Assembly: GCA_000004985.1 (NCBI GenBank)
Contig: GG738871.1
Reading direction: 5' to 3' (one strand)
From: Naegleria gruberi
Lineage: Eukaryota
Length of the DNA: 64,000 nt
Positions 3,633 through 12,148 of this stretch are shown here, piece after piece. The notes under the pieces were generated by a model. It did no database searches, had not been told where the DNA came from, and saw only the letters and a list, made by a program, of their open reading frames with translations. The stretch's first letter is position 1. Every line of letters starts with the position of its first letter. The translations under genes were made by a program, and so were the position numbers.

Positions 3633-5120
3633 TCAGTATTTAATTTCTGAATTCAACAGTAAGTTTGACATACCTGTTCCATCAGTTACAATAGAAACAA
3701 ATCGGCAATCAAGTGGGTTAGTATTAGGAAAGAATAGTTGGATTGGAAGTAAAATAAAAAATGTCATTGCTGATAATTGAACAGCAATGCAGTAATGTTT
3801 TGCATTGCACTGGAGTGTAAAATTGCCTATGCCTATATCTGTTGGATTAGGAGTCCAGGTAATTGCTGTGGAAGTATACTGAGATAGAGCTTGATGAGTT
3901 GCTGTGTCACGATTTAATTGTCTGATATTGTTATTGAAATTGATATTTTGAGGGAAAAGTGAATTGATAGAACCATTCATAGGTGTTATTGGCATTCCTA
4001 TCATTGAATAATTGCTACTTCCAAATTGAAAATTGAACATGACTGTTGTTGGTATAGTTTGTGAGGATGATATTGAGCTGGAAGTGTTTGGTGGATTGGC
4101 GGATTCATTTCCTTTCTTCTTCTTTTGATCATTTTCCCAAACAATAATTAATTCGTGTTCTTTTCGTTTCTTCTCATTCTTCTTTCGTTCTTTTTCTAGT
4201 ATTTCTTGCTCCTTTCTTTGCTTTTTCTGTGCTATTCGTTCCTTTTCTATTCTACTCTTATCGAGCAGTCTAGAAAAAACGAATTGAGGAGTCAAGTTTG
4301 GGTTTAATTGGTAATCGAGTAAAAATTTCTGTAAATCCCGTAAATTTTCTTTGGCATTTTTCATCAATTTCAATTGATATGTCTGTATTTCTTGGGTTGT
4401 AAATTTCTTTTGCATACTTGATTTGTAGGAGGTAGATATTGTTATACAGGAGTCTAAGGTATTACTGAACTTCTTTAGTTTTGATCTAATGTGTGATACT
4501 TGAGTATTACTAAGAGTGAATGAAAATTCAAACTTTTTCTGGTAGAAATTTTTGATGAAAGAGTTAACAGAAGAACACAGATCACAATCACAATCAAACT
4601 CTGAGGGTTGTGAGAAGCAAATTGTTAGCGCTTTTCTATCATTGATGCACTTTTCTAAATACTCTATACTTGTTTTCATTAATCTTACCCAATTTTGTAA
4701 AGCACCATTTGTACAAAGAGACTGAAAATTATTTCTTACAAAGTAAGTGTCCAATATTTTAACAATGGTAAATATAACTTCATCCTTATCCATCATTAAT
4801 TCCCAAACCTCAATTAATTTGCTAATAGATTCATACTCTTTTGTATCAAATAAATTTGAAAAAATTGTTTCATGCTCCTCCTGTGTTTTCAATAATTTGT
4901 TTTCAATAATATATTTCCTAAATCCAGAATAGAAAAGTTGAACATCTTTGTTTTCAACATCTTGCTTATAATTTTCAAAATATGTAGATGGCTTTAAATT
5001 TGAAAACAGTACAGAGGGCTCAAATGTACTGTAACCATAATCTTGAATGAGCTGTAAGGATTTTGGGTAATCATTTTTCAGGTAGATGGGTATGAGACAC
5101 TGTGCAAACTCTCTTGTCAA
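3633..5120 (-). CDS. Hypothetical protein (about 495 aa) with a Lys/Glu-rich coiled-coil segment and a Ser/Asn-rich tail.
   Basis: Long ORF with a KKQRKEQEILEKERKKNEKKRKEHE stretch. It may start at a TTG/ATG near 5120. No family recognised. Its relation to the gene immediately upstream is unresolved. Confidence 0.4.
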   Translation of the reverse strand: MTREFAQCLIPIYLKNDYPKSLQLIQDYGYSTFEPSVLFSNLKPSTYFENYKQDVENKDVQLFYSGFRKYIIENKLLKTQEEHETIFSNLFDTKEYESISKLIEVWELMMDKDEVIFTIVKILDTYFVRNNFQSLCTNGALQNWVRLMKTSIEYLEKCINDRKALTICFSQPSEFDCDCDLCSSVNSFIKNFYQKKFEFSFTLSNTQVSHIRSKLKKFSNTLDSCITISTSYKSSMQKKFTTQEIQTYQLKLMKNAKENLRDLQKFLLDYQLNPNLTPQFVFSRLLDKSRIEKERIAQKKQRKEQEILEKERKKNEKKRKEHELIIVWENDQKKKKGNESANPPNTSSSISSSQTIPTTVMFNFQFGSSNYSMIGMPITPMNGSINSLFPQNINFNNNIRQLNRDTATHQALSQYTSTAITWTPNPTDIGIGNFTLQCNAKHYCIAVQLSAMTFFILLPIQLFFPNTNPLDCRFVSIVTDGTGMSNLLLNSEIKY

Positions 5121-5236: not shown

Positions 5237-7185
5237 TCAACACAACTTACCCTTATCGAAAGAATATACTACATCTCTCTGCTTTTCACAAAATCTATAA
5301 ATTTTTTCCATGCAATCAAAGGACTGAATTACAGGACTAGCTCTTTCGACAATAATTCTCATATCTTCCAAATTGAAATATTTCTCAAAAATATTTAAAT
5401 AATATGATAAATGATAAGTTTCCTTCTTCTTCAATATATCTACAACAAATGAAGCGTAAATATCTCTGAAAGTAGCAAACCCAAACTTATGCAATAATTT
5501 CTCAAATATTACCGATGAAATATTTTGGAAATTACACTTTTTAAGAAGAAAATCTTCAGCTAGCTCTTTGCTATCCAGCTCTATCAATACATCCAACATC
5601 TTCTCATGTTTTGTTCCTTTTACAGAAGAGTCCCATCCAAAAGAAGAAGTATTGAACCAAAAATCAGTAAACTGCTCATAAAAACTTTTCAAATATTGCT
5701 CACTTCCAATTTTTAGCAGATGTTTGAAATAGTGGAGTGTAAAGAAGAACCCCAAATTAAAGTAAGAGTAATCCTCATCTGGAAGAATAATCAAACACGT
5801 GGTTCTGTACCATTTTGATGATTGAGTTCCATAATTTCCTTCAAGAGAAAAAATTACATATTAAAAAAAATCAAATAAATACCTGTTTGATATTCAACGG
5901 ATTGCAATAGTTTCATATCATTAGCTCTTTCTTTTGGGAAGAATTCATTTAAATCTTGCGTTAGTTCGGCATAAATTGGCTCATTATTATAAAATATCTT
6001 TGAAATTTCAAAAGTAGCACCTTTTTCAAAATCTCCATCACTATATCCATCATTAACTCGTTTCGTGATAAATGCTGGAATAATTAAAATTTTCAAACAT
6101 GTGTCTTTTAAGGCAGAATAGATTTTGTAATCATTTCCTTTCAAATTTTCACACCCAAAAACTAGACTCTCTGATGTATAATCATGTTCCAATAAATAAA
6201 TTATAGATTTGTAGTAGAGATCGCCTTTCAACCATGAAATCAACTGCTGACTCAGCATTTCTAGATCATTTTCAATGTCTACAATGGGTAATGGTTGGTT
6301 GATATCATGGGTCGTGACAATAATATTATAAACTAGACAAGTTCTATATCCACTTGTCAAAGGCATTACTGCATGATCACAATCCGAATAGAATGAAATG
6401 AAATGGGCAGAGGTTGAAGCATCTTCGTCTGAATAATCAATTTCCCTTTCACTCGAATTATGTCTAATTTTAAAAGAACCTCCTTCATAGAGGGATGGTA
6501 AAATAATTGCCAAGGTGCATGTTTGTTGACATTCCTTTTCTTTGTGAAAATCAAAATGACCTCCTTTCTCGTATAATAATAATTTGTGCAATTTACATGG
6601 ACTTTGAACCACTTTCTTGTGTTTCTCAATTCCCAATCCACTTTTGATTTTTGAATTCAATAATAAATGCAATTCTTTCTGCCAGACTGGATTAGTAATT
6701 CTGAATTGGTGTGGTTCCAATTCGAATGAATTTCTCACTTGATCATGAATTGTTTCCTCACCCTTTCCAAATGGTGATTTCTTCCCAATTCGTATAATTT
6801 CATCAGCCTGTTCTTTGTAAATGATTGGCAATGCAATAGGTTTATATTTCTCTACATTCTCTTCAGTAATTATTAATTCAATTCCAGGCACTTTCATCAC
6901 ATCAGGAAGACGATCATAATAATAATAATTTCCTCCAACTGATGTAATATTTGTAAAGGTATTCTGCAGCCTTCCAAAAAGATCCTCCATATTGAAGGAA
7001 TTATCATGATCGGAATCACTTTCATTTGCTTGATCGGATGAATCTGTGTCATTTACTTCTTCAGTTTTAATTTCATTGGTTGCGTGATGTTCGTTTGTTT
7101 CTGCGTGAGAGGATGCAAGAGTTTCATTTTGCTCCATTTTTTGGTGGAAATTTATGCTCTTTCCCGCCAAGATAAACGTTGCCAC
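5237..7185 (-). CDS. 2OG-Fe(II) oxygenase of the prolyl-4-hydroxylase (P4Hc/PKHD-like) superfamily plus a C-terminal domain of unknown function. Exons are 5883..7185 and 5237..5838; the intron is 5839..5882 (44 nt).
   Basis: The core double-stranded beta-helix motifs are present: GGHFDFHKE (HxD), then SDCDHAVMPLTSGYRTCLVYNI (second His with Arg ten residues downstream), as in PHD/Ofd1-type hydroxylases. The intron runs GTATTT...CTTGAAG in phase 1. It joins ...VEYQT-G-NYGTQSSKWYR... in frame, and the exon lengths agree. Confidence 0.6.
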
Positions 7186-7546
7186 AGAGAAAGATAAAAA
7201 AATGTGGTGATATTATTTGAATGTTTGATAATGTTTAGATGGAGGTGTTTCTGCTTTTTCTCCATTATAAAATACTAAATATTGAAATATTGTTAATCAA
7301 ATATGATGAAATTAATAGTAACATTTGGAAACTTTGATCATCAGAAAACAAAATGTGATACTAATAGACAACTAGTAGTTGTTGGATAATCAATTTAGAG
7401 ATCTTCATTTCGGATGGAACAATAACCATCATGATGCATATAAAATTATCATCACATAATTAATTCCAAATCAGTACATTTTCATCGAAATGGATAAAAA
7501 CAAACGATTAGAACAAAGCAAACTAAAAAATTGAGTCAAAAGGATC
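7186..7546. promoter_or_regulatory. Intergenic region shared by two divergently transcribed dioxygenase genes; presumed bidirectional promoter.
   Basis: AT-rich 361-bp spacer between the start codons at 7185 (minus strand) and 7547 (plus strand). No specific motif was verified. Confidence 0.3.
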
Positions 7547-9298
7547 ATGTCTATTAACACCACTTTCAATCAAAAGACTACTCAAAGTGGAGAACCTCCA
7601 ATGATGATGAGAATGACAAATAGTAGTACACCACCACTAACACCAAAGAATTGCCTCCCTATTTTCGTCTACAATGATTATGGGAAATTAATTAGAGAGG
7701 AACAGCAACAACCTACTGATATTATTACTAATAACAATAATTCAATGATGAGATCTATGCCAACTACCAATAGATGGGAAACAAATCCACAAACACCATT
7801 AAGTGTTTCTCCTTTCCAACCACTTTTACCGATTCCAAATTTCTCTCATGCATTCATTGTGGGAAATTTGCCACCAAGTGTGTCAGTGAGGAGAAAGAAT
7901 AGGAAAATGTCAGAGAAACCAAAAAACAACTCTGCACCAAGTAAAATAATGCATCAATTAGAATTATCAGTATTGAATAATCAGAGAAGAATTGCACCAA
8001 AAGGACCTCTTGCTGATATTTCTAATATACAACTTCCTCAACAAGAATCAACAAATAAGAGCAATAACACAACACCTAAAAAACCAAGAATTAGGCAATT
8101 AATGTTAACAACTCCCCTTAGAGAAAGCCTTCAATCAAACCAATCGGCCAGAAGCAAATACATTGATGAAGAAGCAAATAATTATTCTATTAATGATAGT
8201 CCTGAAACAACAATTATTAAAACCAGCAATACAAAAGATAGTGAGCATAAGGCAGCGATGGCAACTAATTTGGGCTTATCTACTGATGATTTTGAGTGCA
8301 AACCATTCGAAACCACAACACTACCTTCCGTCATTGATAAGAATTATCTGGTGGTTGATAAGGAAGGATGTACACAATTAGCACTCCTTCCCAATCACAT
8401 CCCAACAAGTGTGTGTAAACTTATTGAGGTGAAGTGTAGGAAAGTTTCTAACTTGAGACATGCCTTAAAAATCCAAAAGGCATCATTTTACGTCAATTGG
8501 TGGACTAAAAGTCAGCCAATGGGCTATATGTGTAAAGATAACGAATCTGAAATTGGAAAAGTTGTCAATGAGATTGCAGAATTACTCTCTGATCATTGTA
8601 GAAATTTATTACGAATGTGCAATGAGAGAGTGTACAAGAAAATTAGTGAGCTGAAGGAAGACAAGTTTTTTGCACCTTGTATTTGTTTTAATATATTGGA
8701 ACATGATTTGGAGAGCAGAATTACGAAATTTCATCATGATAAAATGGATTATGGAGTTTCAGTTTTATTCTATTTTGGAGACTATAGTCGAGGAAATTTG
8801 AATGTTTTGGATGCAGGATCTTCATCAACCATTGTCACACGACCTGGTGATGCTGTAATATTGAGAGGAAATTACTACAAGCATTCTGTGCAAAACATTG
8901 AACCTGGGAACAATAAGGCAAGATACAGCATTGTATTTTTTGCTCATTCGACACATTTCCTTAAGAAAAAGTATGAACTCTCCCCTGCAGCTGCTAAGAA
9001 GGCATTCTTGGTTGACAATCCTGATTTTGTTTCCATAAAGAAGAGAAAGCAAGCCAGTTCCTCCTCAGATGTGAGTGTAAAGAAATCAAAGAAATCCACT
9101 GAAGATAATGTAGAATTCATTCAGACTCACACCTACTTGGGCAATGGTTACAAGTCTGGTCACAAGAATTATCAATATTATGTTAAATTTAATAATAGTG
9201 ATCAGAAGGAGTGGAAATCTTACGAAAGCTTGCCGAAGCAAGCAGTTGCCTCCTATTGGGTAAAATTCAAAAAGCTCAAATCTTTGAGCAATCAATAA
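7547..9298 (+). CDS. Tet/JBP-family 2OG-Fe(II) dioxygenase of the 5-methylcytosine oxidase type (Naegleria NgTet-like). It has a low-complexity N-terminal extension and a chromodomain-like C-terminus.
   Basis: The segment ...ALLPNHIPTSV...KFHHDKMDYGVSVLFYFGDYSRGNLNVLDAGSSSTIVTRPGDAVILRGNYYKHSVQNIEPGNNKARYSIVFFAHSTHF closely resembles NgTet1 as I recall it (KPHKDNLD...SLFYFGNF...VQPGDVLFFKGNEYKHVVANI...RIGLVYFAHKGSK). The HxD, distal His and Arg residues are all present. The C-terminus, NYQYYVKFNNSDQKEWKSYESLP, has a chromodomain-like aromatic pattern. It is a single exon. Confidence 0.7.
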   Translation: MSINTTFNQKTTQSGEPPMMMRMTNSSTPPLTPKNCLPIFVYNDYGKLIREEQQQPTDIITNNNNSMMRSMPTTNRWETNPQTPLSVSPFQPLLPIPNFSHAFIVGNLPPSVSVRRKNRKMSEKPKNNSAPSKIMHQLELSVLNNQRRIAPKGPLADISNIQLPQQESTNKSNNTTPKKPRIRQLMLTTPLRESLQSNQSARSKYIDEEANNYSINDSPETTIIKTSNTKDSEHKAAMATNLGLSTDDFECKPFETTTLPSVIDKNYLVVDKEGCTQLALLPNHIPTSVCKLIEVKCRKVSNLRHALKIQKASFYVNWWTKSQPMGYMCKDNESEIGKVVNEIAELLSDHCRNLLRMCNERVYKKISELKEDKFFAPCICFNILEHDLESRITKFHHDKMDYGVSVLFYFGDYSRGNLNVLDAGSSSTIVTRPGDAVILRGNYYKHSVQNIEPGNNKARYSIVFFAHSTHFLKKKYELSPAAAKKAFLVDNPDFVSIKKRKQASSSSDVSVKKSKKSTEDNVEFIQTHTYLGNGYKSGHKNYQYYVKFNNSDQKEWKSYESLPKQAVASYWVKFKKLKSLSNQ

Positions 9299-9357
9299 AA
9301 GCAATAATTCCAGCGTAATTAAATTTGTGAAAGATTATTTTATTACCTATAATCAAC

Positions 9358-11541
9358 CTAGCTCAATATTAACTTGAGAACTTCATCATTTGATTTATCT
9401 GACAGAGTAGTCTTGAAAGTAAGCACTCCATTCAACAGTGAAATTACATAAAGAGTTTTTTCCTGTTCGCCTGTCTCTACAAACATAGAGTTAGATCTTG
9501 GATAGATATTAACAGCATTTGGACGTTCAGAGAGTTGTTTCCTAAATGTCCAAACTAGAGTTCCAGATTTGATATCAACACAATAGACCGATAGATAAGT
9601 ATCACCAAATAAATCTTCAGTTTCCACATCATCCGCCATCTCATCTTCATTGGCAGGTTCTTCCATTGTTTCCTCAGATTCATCCTCAATATCTACTACT
9701 TCTTCCTGTTGTTGTTGACGTTCTTTCAATGGCTTATGTACACATGCAAAGTAAATATTGCTTCCGTAGAGATAGTATGATTTGCAAGAAGTCTTGGCAG
9801 GTATTTCCAAAGGAACAGACCAAACAATAGATGGTGTTAAAACCTGCTCAACTACCTTCTCACGATTTCTAAAGTGTCTTTCATGTTCTACATTCACAGC
9901 AACTGATTTTAAGCATGAACATCCCTTCTTGTAAGGCAAATTGCCAAAAGTTGCCTTCTTTTCATTGGCTTGATAAGGTGAGAGGTAAACAAATCCACCC
10001 AAAGACTTTTCTTCATCCTCAAAAATTACAAGAGGCTCTCCTGAGGCAAGATTATTTCTATCCTTGTCAAAACCGGAAAAGATATTCTTCAATTGATCTA
10101 TATCAAATACACTCCCAGAGGCAAACAGATTGTTTGGAGTGACATGTAAATTGCCTGAGAAGGAATCTCCAACAGTAGTTCCAGTCATAGATAATAGAGA
10201 GAAATGACTCTCAGATCCTGTTAGCAGATATATTTGATTGTCATCTGTTACTATTGAGGATATTAATCGATCTACATTAGCAACATCCTTTAAGAGCCCA
10301 ACTTCGCGTAAAGTCATTCTATCCAGTATATGGACATTATGCTTTTTTGTCTTTACAATGTAAAACTTGTCGATAGGTAAGAGTGATGAGGTAGCCTCTT
10401 CTAATTCTTCCTTTGGGAGTTTTACACGAAGTGTTACGAAATGTCTACACACGCCTTTCATATCTAGCAAGGCAATATAATTTGGAAATTCTAATACAAT
10501 TTTTCTGGTTAAATGATCATAAAATACAAATAAAAGATTATCCTTAAAGAATTCCTTTCTTTCCCTCTCTACAACAGACTGAAATTCATAAGACTCCTCA
10601 AATTTTCTGGTATCATTGGCTTCATTTTGAAGCTCAATCATTCTTTGTTGCCATTCAGCACTATTAATTGCTACTTGTTGATTTTTCATAGTGTCATTGA
10701 ATGTTTGTCTCAATCGTTCCCTTCTTTCCTTGTCCTTGAGGGTCAAAAGCTCCCTCTTGAAAGTGCTAAAGGCCTTATCCTGTTGCAATTTTACCTCCAA
10801 AGGTTTGATTTGATTGAATGCATCTTCTGAGAGTGAAAGAACTGTTTGACCAGTTGGAACATCTACCACTTGAAAAGTATCCTTCCCTCTATTTGGATCG
10901 AATATAAATACATAATCAGTACCAGTGTAAACTCGTTTTTGTTCAGATCCAGACTTGTTGAAAATCTCAAACCTTTCATGTATGTATGGAGAATGAATTG
11001 AAGTCATTTCTTTCAATGAGGCAATTGTATTTGGCAATGTATAAATCACCTTGCTTTGCAAAATATCAAAACATGATTTTCCATCCTTTAAAAAGGTATA
11101 TCTGTCTCTATTCTTGATACTTCCCTTCAAACACATTTGATTCCAAGACTTTGATACTAATCGACATGTTTGAATTTCCTCCAAGGTAAGAAAAGCCAAT
11201 GACGTGCTGATACAATCTTCAACAGTCATAGATACAAACTCTGATGAAGGCTTTTCACCCATAACCATAAATTGAAGTTTTCTTCGTTTGAGACTTCTCA
11301 GAGTAATATCATTGGTCAAGACTTTTCCAGAGCAAATAATTTTAGTTCTTGATGGTGGTATCCCAAAGTCCTGCTCCAATTCTTTCTTGATGGTTTGTAT
11401 GCTGGTATTTTCATCCAAGTCTAGAGTACATTTGGTTTTCTTACTCAGAATGTTGAAAGATACATTCACTATACTATTATTATTATTGGAAATCATGATT
11501 CTCTTATTAATTTGAACTTGTTGAAGATGTATGATGTACAA
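9358..11541 (-). CDS. Ubiquitin-like domain plus F-box protein with a large C-terminal region, possibly a beta-propeller. The real start is probably the Met at MISNNNN.
   Basis: The ubiquitin-like fold shows in KCTLDLDENTSIQTIKKELEQDFGIPPSRTKIICSGKVLTNDITL (compare ubiquitin [22 protein letters not shown]). The F-box-like segment is SLAFLTLEEIQTCRLVSKSWNQMC. Confidence 0.5.
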   Translation of the reverse strand: MYIIHLQQVQINKRIMISNNNNSIVNVSFNILSKKTKCTLDLDENTSIQTIKKELEQDFGIPPSRTKIICSGKVLTNDITLRSLKRRKLQFMVMGEKPSSEFVSMTVEDCISTSLAFLTLEEIQTCRLVSKSWNQMCLKGSIKNRDRYTFLKDGKSCFDILQSKVIYTLPNTIASLKEMTSIHSPYIHERFEIFNKSGSEQKRVYTGTDYVFIFDPNRGKDTFQVVDVPTGQTVLSLSEDAFNQIKPLEVKLQQDKAFSTFKRELLTLKDKERRERLRQTFNDTMKNQQVAINSAEWQQRMIELQNEANDTRKFEESYEFQSVVERERKEFFKDNLLFVFYDHLTRKIVLEFPNYIALLDMKGVCRHFVTLRVKLPKEELEEATSSLLPIDKFYIVKTKKHNVHILDRMTLREVGLLKDVANVDRLISSIVTDDNQIYLLTGSESHFSLLSMTGTTVGDSFSGNLHVTPNNLFASGSVFDIDQLKNIFSGFDKDRNNLASGEPLVIFEDEEKSLGGFVYLSPYQANEKKATFGNLPYKKGCSCLKSVAVNVEHERHFRNREKVVEQVLTPSIVWSVPLEIPAKTSCKSYYLYGSNIYFACVHKPLKERQQQQEEVVDIEDESEETMEEPANEDEMADDVETEDLFGDTYLSVYCVDIKSGTLVWTFRKQLSERPNAVNIYPRSNSMFVETGEQEKTLYVISLLNGVLTFKTTLSDKSNDEVLKLILS

Positions 11542-12148
11542 GAAAAAATCAATCGATTCCGAAAACTACACTTTCAAAATATGATCAATTTTTAAGCCTG
11601 AGCAAATGATGAAACTCTATTCCCAAGCCTTCTTCGCTTTTTTTTGTTTGTTCTATTTTTGCTTCAAAATTTGCTGCTCTTGGTCTTTGAACAAAACATT
11701 GTTCTTGAAGCAAATTTTTCATCAACATAAGCTCTCATATGTAACAATAACTTTGTCCTAACTACCTCCTCTCGGAACACCAAATAATATTATCATCCAA
11801 ATACCATCCATTAGGAGTCAATAATTTTGAAAGAAGATTAAATTCTTGATGATTTTTTTCAAGCTCCAAAAAATGGCTCCTTCCTTCTCGCCCACACCAA
11901 ATGGCAAAACAATAATTTCAGCACAGCAACAGCTGCAGTCGGAGTCTTCATTTCGTGATGAATGTGTTTGTGGAGAGAATGTTGAATGGCTTGGTTGATT
12001 TATCTACATCTTCTATTGTACCACTTATTGAATCTTCTTCATCATCTTTGAAAGGGAATCAAATCAATAATAATCAGGACTATGTATTGATAGTATTAAT
12101 GCAAACTTTGATAATTCATCCATTACACCAACAAAAGCCATCATTAAC

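Follow-up and report, generated by a model that had tools for sequence, protein, structure and literature searches.

A Tet/JBP-clade protein of Naegleria gruberi with a probably chromo-derived C-terminal module

The closest described relative of the gene analysed here is NgTet1 of Naegleria gruberi (XP_002667965.1; PDB 4LT5, 5CG8 and 5CG9). In NgTet1, R224 forms an ion pair with 2-oxoglutarate (2OG) and stacks on the flipped base, R289 binds the C5 carboxylate of 2OG, D234 contacts N4 of cytosine, H297 contacts N3 and N147 contacts O2 of the base, and V293 and F295 contribute a hydrophobic pocket and base stacking (PMC4678852). The mutation D234N shifts NgTet1 towards thymine, on which the wild type has minor activity, and A212V limits oxidation to 5-hydroxymethylcytosine (5hmC) (PMC4678852). 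Here we report on the gene at 7547..9298 on the plus strand of a 64,000-nt stretch of N. gruberi contig GG738871.1 (the window; about 33% GC).

An exact-sequence look-up identified the gene product as N. gruberi XP_002676528.1 (EFC43784.1; UniProt D2VHE0; NAEGRDRAFT_68183), which the databases annotate as 'predicted protein' only and place on a 417,575-bp scaffold. The products of two more open reading frames (ORFs) of the window are likewise identical to N. gruberi proteins encoded on that scaffold, and the window is accordingly nuclear DNA of N. gruberi NEG-M. The initiating ATG is preceded by an in-frame stop five codons upstream. XP_002676528.1 is an already catalogued (GenBank, UniProt), uncharacterised relative of NgTet1 with an intact catalytic site. 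The N. gruberi family also includes XP_002676954.1, XP_002668594.1, XP_002674105.1, XP_002668409.1 and XP_002682154.1. Hashimoto et al. in 2014, and related NEB patents, reportedly dealt with eight such proteins, NgTet1-8 or mYOX1-8. The accessions recovered here agree with that list, of which XP_002676528.1 is reportedly number 4 (NgTet4/mYOX4) and XP_002682154.1 reportedly NgTet2. Tet-chromo fusions have been noted previously. A literature search by accession numbers, NgTet4 and mYOX4 gave no relevant match. With the family of Tet-like enzymes of N. gruberi already known and XP_002676528.1 already deposited, the gene as such changes little for the field. Its features are:

7547..9298, plus strand: complete single-exon coding sequence, 583 aa plus stop, taken from the ORF list with coordinates re-translated
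7547..8311, plus strand: N-terminal region, aa 1-255, rich in N, P, S and T (composition)
7889-7906, plus strand: basic patch RRKNRK, aa 115-120
8330..9064, plus strand: Tet/JBP-type double-stranded beta-helix catalytic domain, aa 262-506, including conserved C-terminal helices (phmmer, AlphaFold2 (AF2), Foldseek)
8717..8719, plus strand: R391, equivalent to NgTet1 R224 (residue map)
8732..8749, plus strand: HHDKMD with the Fe(II) ligands H396 and D398, and D401 (invariant columns, residue map)
8882..8884, plus strand: H446, distal Fe(II) ligand, equivalent to NgTet1 H279 (invariant column, residue map)
8921..8947, plus strand: RYSIVFFAH with R459, V463, F465 and H467 (family alignment, residue map)
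9065..9103, plus strand: K/S-rich linker, aa 507-519 (composition; predicted local distance difference test, pLDDT, below 50 at model residues 258-270)
9104..9283, plus strand: probably chromo-derived module, aa 520-579, beta-beta-beta-alpha
9104-9106, 9188-9190 and 9197-9199, plus strand: cage-equivalent positions D520, F548 and S551

The catalytic domain and its active site

A phmmer search of all PDB sequences gave NgTet1 as the sole real match (4LT5, E 2.4e-18; 5CG8, E 1.3e-18). Residues 266-478 of XP_002676528.1 aligned with NgTet1 97-308 at 34% identity over 202 aligned positions. The AF2 model of aa 250-583 had a mean pLDDT of 86, with values above 90 in the catalytic core. Its best four PDB matches in Foldseek were all NgTet1 (E about 1e-19, root mean square deviation 1.7-2.0 Å, TM score 0.76-0.79); the match to 4LT5 had an E of 2.7e-19 and a deviation of 1.9 Å over 241 columns with a TM score of 0.76. 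CcTet came after the NgTet1 entries, then TET2 and CMD1. Sequence and fold searches alike bear out the NgTet-like core proposed in the initial annotation. When 1.84 billion representative sequences were searched exhaustively by HMMER, with aa 250-583 as query, only 16 proteins came up at E<=1e-3, one of them a leucine-rich-repeat false positive. From word-indexed searches, whether the query was the whole protein, aa 250-583 or a family profile of 15 sequences, only a 99%-identical strain variant and one known match were obtained. XP_002676528.1 is a TET/JBP-clade protein and resembles NgTet1 far more closely than chance would allow.

To map the active site, the NgTet1 residues described in PMC4678852 were carried across the phmmer alignment. 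Nine positions were identical: R224 corresponds to R391, H229 to H396, D231 to D398, D234 to D401, H279 to H446, R289 to R459, V293 to V463, F295 to F465 and H297 to H467. The Fe(II) facial triad HxD...H is present as H396, D398 and H446, and both 2OG arginines, R391 and R459, are kept. The strings FHHDKMD, YYKHSV and KARYSIVFFAH, from which the catalytic block had been read, are all found in the ORF, and on proper alignment the HxD, the distal His and the 2OG Arg carry no substitution. In the family alignment of 15-16 members H396, D398, D401, D435 and H446 were invariant and R459 nearly so. Of the flipped-base pocket described for NgTet1, four positions are kept (F465, H467, D401 and V463) and two differ (K321 for N147 and C380 for A212). 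Because D401 stands in for D234, which reads N4 and whose Asn mutant turns towards thymine, a cytosine-type substrate is favoured for XP_002676528.1. Residue C380 takes the position of A212, where valine restricts NgTet1 to 5hmC; the product spectrum may thus differ from that of NgTet1, which might interest those who employ NgTet enzymes in sequencing.

A second N. gruberi-like strain is represented by a 4943-bp metagenome contig (ENA ERZ929261) that matches window positions 7055..11989 and carries the 99%-identical allele. The two coding sequences differ at 10 nucleotides, 3 of them synonymous and 7 in non-synonymous codons (6 codons), and by the in-frame deletion of an ATG in an MMM run. The catalytic core showed 1 synonymous difference in 697 nt, compared to a divergence of 1.1-1.3% in the coding flanks of the core and 2.5% in the upstream intergenic region. 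The catalytic core is under purifying selection. The N-terminal region differed by 1.07% and had a single indel, which is in frame and hence consistent with coding sequence; the indels of the upstream intergenic region are frame-breaking.

The C-terminal module and the proposed function

The paralogue closest to XP_002676528.1 by Tet core within N. gruberi is XP_002682154.1 (E 7.3e-29). Residues 461-514 of XP_002682154.1 score as a chromodomain in Pfam (28.8 bits; cut-off 25.1). In BLASTP the tail of XP_002676528.1 fell exactly on this domain (aa 453-514), with an E of 8e-4 for the single comparison. When XP_002676528.1 was aligned to eleven chromodomains by MAFFT, it proved to keep the framework residues E523, G534, Y544, W556 and L562. 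Two indels were common to the two paralogues only: 6 extra residues in the beta1-beta2 loop, and the loss of 3 residues ahead of the invariant Trp. AF2 predicted a beta-beta-beta-alpha fold for aa 522-581, with a pLDDT of 70-82 in the model of aa 250-583 and of 61.6 overall for the isolated domain. We conclude that the C-terminal module is probably derived from a chromodomain. A sub-threshold Pfam match of the tail to NMD3_OB (17.6 bits; cut-off 27) was rejected as it is also at odds with the predicted topology.

The aromatic cage is a different matter. The columns equivalent to Y24, W45 and Y48 of HP1 are occupied by D520, F548 and S551 in every alignment that covers them, so that only one of the three is aromatic; XP_002682154.1 has Y/W/Y in the same columns. 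S551 is replaced by Ile in the strain variant, indicating that position 551 is not constrained to be aromatic. Judged by these columns the canonical cage of XP_002676528.1 is not intact and most of it is lost. The initial annotation had seen a chromodomain-like C-terminus with the spacing of an aromatic cage. Its proposal appears to hold in part for origin and fold, and fails for an intact methyl-lysine cage; F524, the Phe apparently counted there, sits on a core position of beta1.

We favour the view, which we hold to be likely, that XP_002676528.1 is an Fe(II)/2OG-dependent 5-methylpyrimidine dioxygenase with a chromo-derived C-terminal module that is most likely not a canonical HP1/Polycomb trimethyl-lysine reader. 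5-Methylcytosine (5mC) would be flipped from the DNA duplex and caged by F465 and R391, its edge being read by D401, H467 and K321, the latter in place of NgTet1 N147. The methyl group would then be oxidised with iron held by H396, D398 and H446 and 2OG by R391 and R459. We infer these steps from the position-by-position agreement with the crystal structures of NgTet1 bound to DNA. The C-terminal module would share its descent with the chromodomain that is still canonical in XP_002682154.1. Because two of the three cage residues appear to have been replaced (Tyr by Asp520 and Tyr by Ser551), with the fold-determining residues being kept, its role most likely lies in targeting or interaction.

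Several observations weigh against this view. The Pfam model PF12851 (Tet_JBP) scored no more than 18.7 bits, and this only on the core scanned alone, under its cut-off of 34.9; since the same model misses or under-scores the remaining Naegleria paralogues too, we regard this as a matter of profile sensitivity and not as evidence against membership. Two pocket positions differ from NgTet1, N147 being K321 and A212 being C380, which may alter base recognition or the extent of oxidation. The alignments supplied to AF2 included the true chromodomain of XP_002682154.1, and the predicted fold of the module is not fully independent of it. The literature search found no published enzyme assay of XP_002676528.1. 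Finally, the DNA of N. gruberi contains about 0.28% 5mC, and 5hmC was not detected (PMC12344493).

The last point, sparse 5mC and undetectable 5hmC, speaks for an alternative in which the enzyme is active, yet acts in the cell on something other than 5mC in DNA, perhaps thymine (oxidised to 5-hydroxymethyluracil, as by JBP) or methylated RNA. Thymine or RNA has been proposed as target by the authors of PMC12344493, NgTet1 itself oxidises thymine to a minor extent (PMC4678852), and the O2-contacting N147 is replaced by K321. However, a basic residue is the rule in the N147 column, where K, R or H is common among the paralogues, the N4-selecting aspartate is retained as D401, and the remainder of the 5mC pocket is identical to that of NgTet1. 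On balance we consider a substrate other than 5mC unlikely, yet to be taken seriously.

Other alternatives concern the C-terminus. The last 65 aa might have nothing to do with chromodomains and form a small beta/alpha element of other origin, or a basic tail that is partly disordered; their resemblance to chromodomains would then be a product of chance and model bias. Profile searches agree with this: Pfam PF00385 (Chromo) gave no match to the isolated C-terminus at E values up to 10, Foldseek gave no significant match with the isolated C-terminal model, and a home-made profile of 13 chromodomain sequences, among them the domain of XP_002682154.1, yielded an E of 0.054 and a probability of 1% in hhalign and 5.2 bits in hmmsearch, a score equalled by 31 of 2000 shuffled sequences. 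Set beside the BLASTP alignment and the common indels described above, an unrelated tail appears doubtful to us. At the other extreme, the module could be a functional chromodomain that holds methylated histone lysine in its aromatic cage, which would tie a histone mark directly to the oxidation of 5mC. Homology of the tail to a canonical chromodomain and the presence of F548 at the central position of the cage speak for this, and Y530, Y535, Y542, Y544, Y545, Y559, Y570 and W571 could form an alternative pocket. Moreover, some proteins that read lower methylation states make use of an acidic residue beside aromatics, as D520 would be. Yet the composition of the cage columns, the Ile at position 551 of the strain variant and the silence of the Pfam Chromo profile speak against such a reader, and we hold it to be quite improbable. 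More speculatively, an ancestral Tet-chromodomain gene may have been duplicated in Naegleria, with XP_002682154.1 keeping the cage and XP_002676528.1 remodelling it to Asp/Phe/Ser, gaining a long disordered N-terminus and recognising a different ligand. The latter may be a lower methylation state read via D520, an unmodified tail, DNA or RNA, or a partner protein. We rate this scenario as rather unlikely; if true, each paralogue would direct 5mC oxidation to a chromatin compartment of its own, and the two would make a ready pair for testing, in a deep-branching eukaryote, DNA demethylation directed by histone marks.

Returning to the favoured reading of a dioxygenase with a non-canonical module, it is XP_002682154.1, and not XP_002676528.1, that joins a Tet core to a chromodomain with its reader cage intact. 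Because the tail of XP_002676528.1 appears to be a degenerate chromo derivative, work on crosstalk between histone marks and 5mC in Naegleria should start with XP_002682154.1, for which XP_002676528.1 would be a natural cage-less comparison.

N-terminal region, linker and genomic neighbourhood

Residues 1-255 are about 69% polar, with a net charge of +8 (sum of two segments) and an entropy of 3.9 bits, and had no family match in Pfam or PDB. The region is probably disordered. A low-complexity extension of about 230 aa had been proposed for this part; the extension exists, reaching about 170 aa beyond the N-terminus of NgTet1, and is compositionally biased, not strictly of low complexity. The patch RRKNRK may be a nuclear localisation signal. 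KKRK (aa 498-501) lies just ahead of the linker, within which KKSKK occupies aa 512-516; linker and KKRK patch together likely represent a nuclear localisation signal or a flexible tether. A candidate N-terminal helix motif, KKPRIRQLM (aa 178-186), which MAFFT aligned with the equivalent of helix alpha1 of NgTet1, was dropped for want of BLASTP support.

The following neighbours were annotated:

3633..5120, minus strand: 495-aa ORF with a sub-threshold match to Imm30 (E 6.6e-5, 23.4 bits; cut-off 27)
5854..7185, minus strand: 443-aa ORF, divergent from the Tet gene across a 361-bp intergenic gap
9358..11541, minus strand: convergent ORF ending 59 bp from the Tet stop codon
13848..14990, plus strand: 380-aa ORF, Rnl2-type RNA ligase (RNA_ligase E 4.7e-21; T4_Rnl2_C E 5.1e-23)

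The divergent ORF at 5854..7185 contains a prolyl-hydroxylase-like 2OG-Fe(II) oxygenase motif, GGHFDFH ... DCDHAVMPLTSGYRTCLVY. A 154-aa segment of it matched PF13640 (2OG-FeII_Oxy_3) with an E of 1.7e-5 and 26.1 bits (cut-off 27) at profile positions 4-96 of 98; the Pfam scan of the full-length product was empty, and no relative was found in PDB. The PF13640 match suggests that two unrelated 2OG dioxygenase genes lie head to head. The convergent ORF encodes an N-terminal ubiquitin-like domain (E 1.4e-9), a weak F-box (E 1e-3) and possibly a beta-propeller, and the 59-bp spacer between it and the Tet stop codon has an 11-bp indel between the strains. The Rnl2-type RNA ligase lies within a eukaryotic genome. 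Imm30 is a family of bacterial polymorphic-toxin immunity proteins, and the match at 3633..5120 may be due to chance. A transposon or DNA methyltransferase context, as for fungal TET/JBP genes, was not found within about 12 kb of the Tet gene, and the window had no synteny with the contig of the closest relative outside N. gruberi.

Comparison with known systems

NgTet1 stems from the same organism as XP_002676528.1 and has the same Tet/JBP fold. The Fe(II) and 2OG residues as well as D234, V293, F295 and H297 are identical in the two proteins, while N147 and A212 differ. With 321 aa NgTet1 lacks both the roughly 170 extra N-terminal residues and the C-terminal module. Unlike XP_002676528.1 it has been characterised biochemically and structurally.

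The fungal CcTet, the mammalian TET2 and the algal CMD1 belong to the same dioxygenase superfamily clade (Foldseek E 1e-12 to 1e-7). Yet they are only 11-16% identical to XP_002676528.1 and none has a chromo-type C-terminus. TET2 differs further by its Cys-rich domain or large inserts, and CMD1 by its co-substrate.

Compared to the chromodomains of HP1 and Polycomb (PF00385), the module of XP_002676528.1 has no profile match and a cage reduced to one Phe. Without the cage it appears closer to chromo-shadow or other non-reader chromo-like domains than to a histone reader.

The nearest counterpart in architecture is XP_002682154.1 (D2V161; 575 aa), which has the same order of Tet core, charged linker and C-terminal chromo-type module. 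It lacks the long N-terminal extension, and its beta-helix is interrupted by about 70 aa of low-complexity sequence, inserted after the distal His and before the 2OG Arg. In contrast to XP_002676528.1 it keeps the Y/W/Y cage in a Pfam-positive chromodomain. XP_002682154.1 is the better candidate for a Tet enzyme guided by methyl-lysine.
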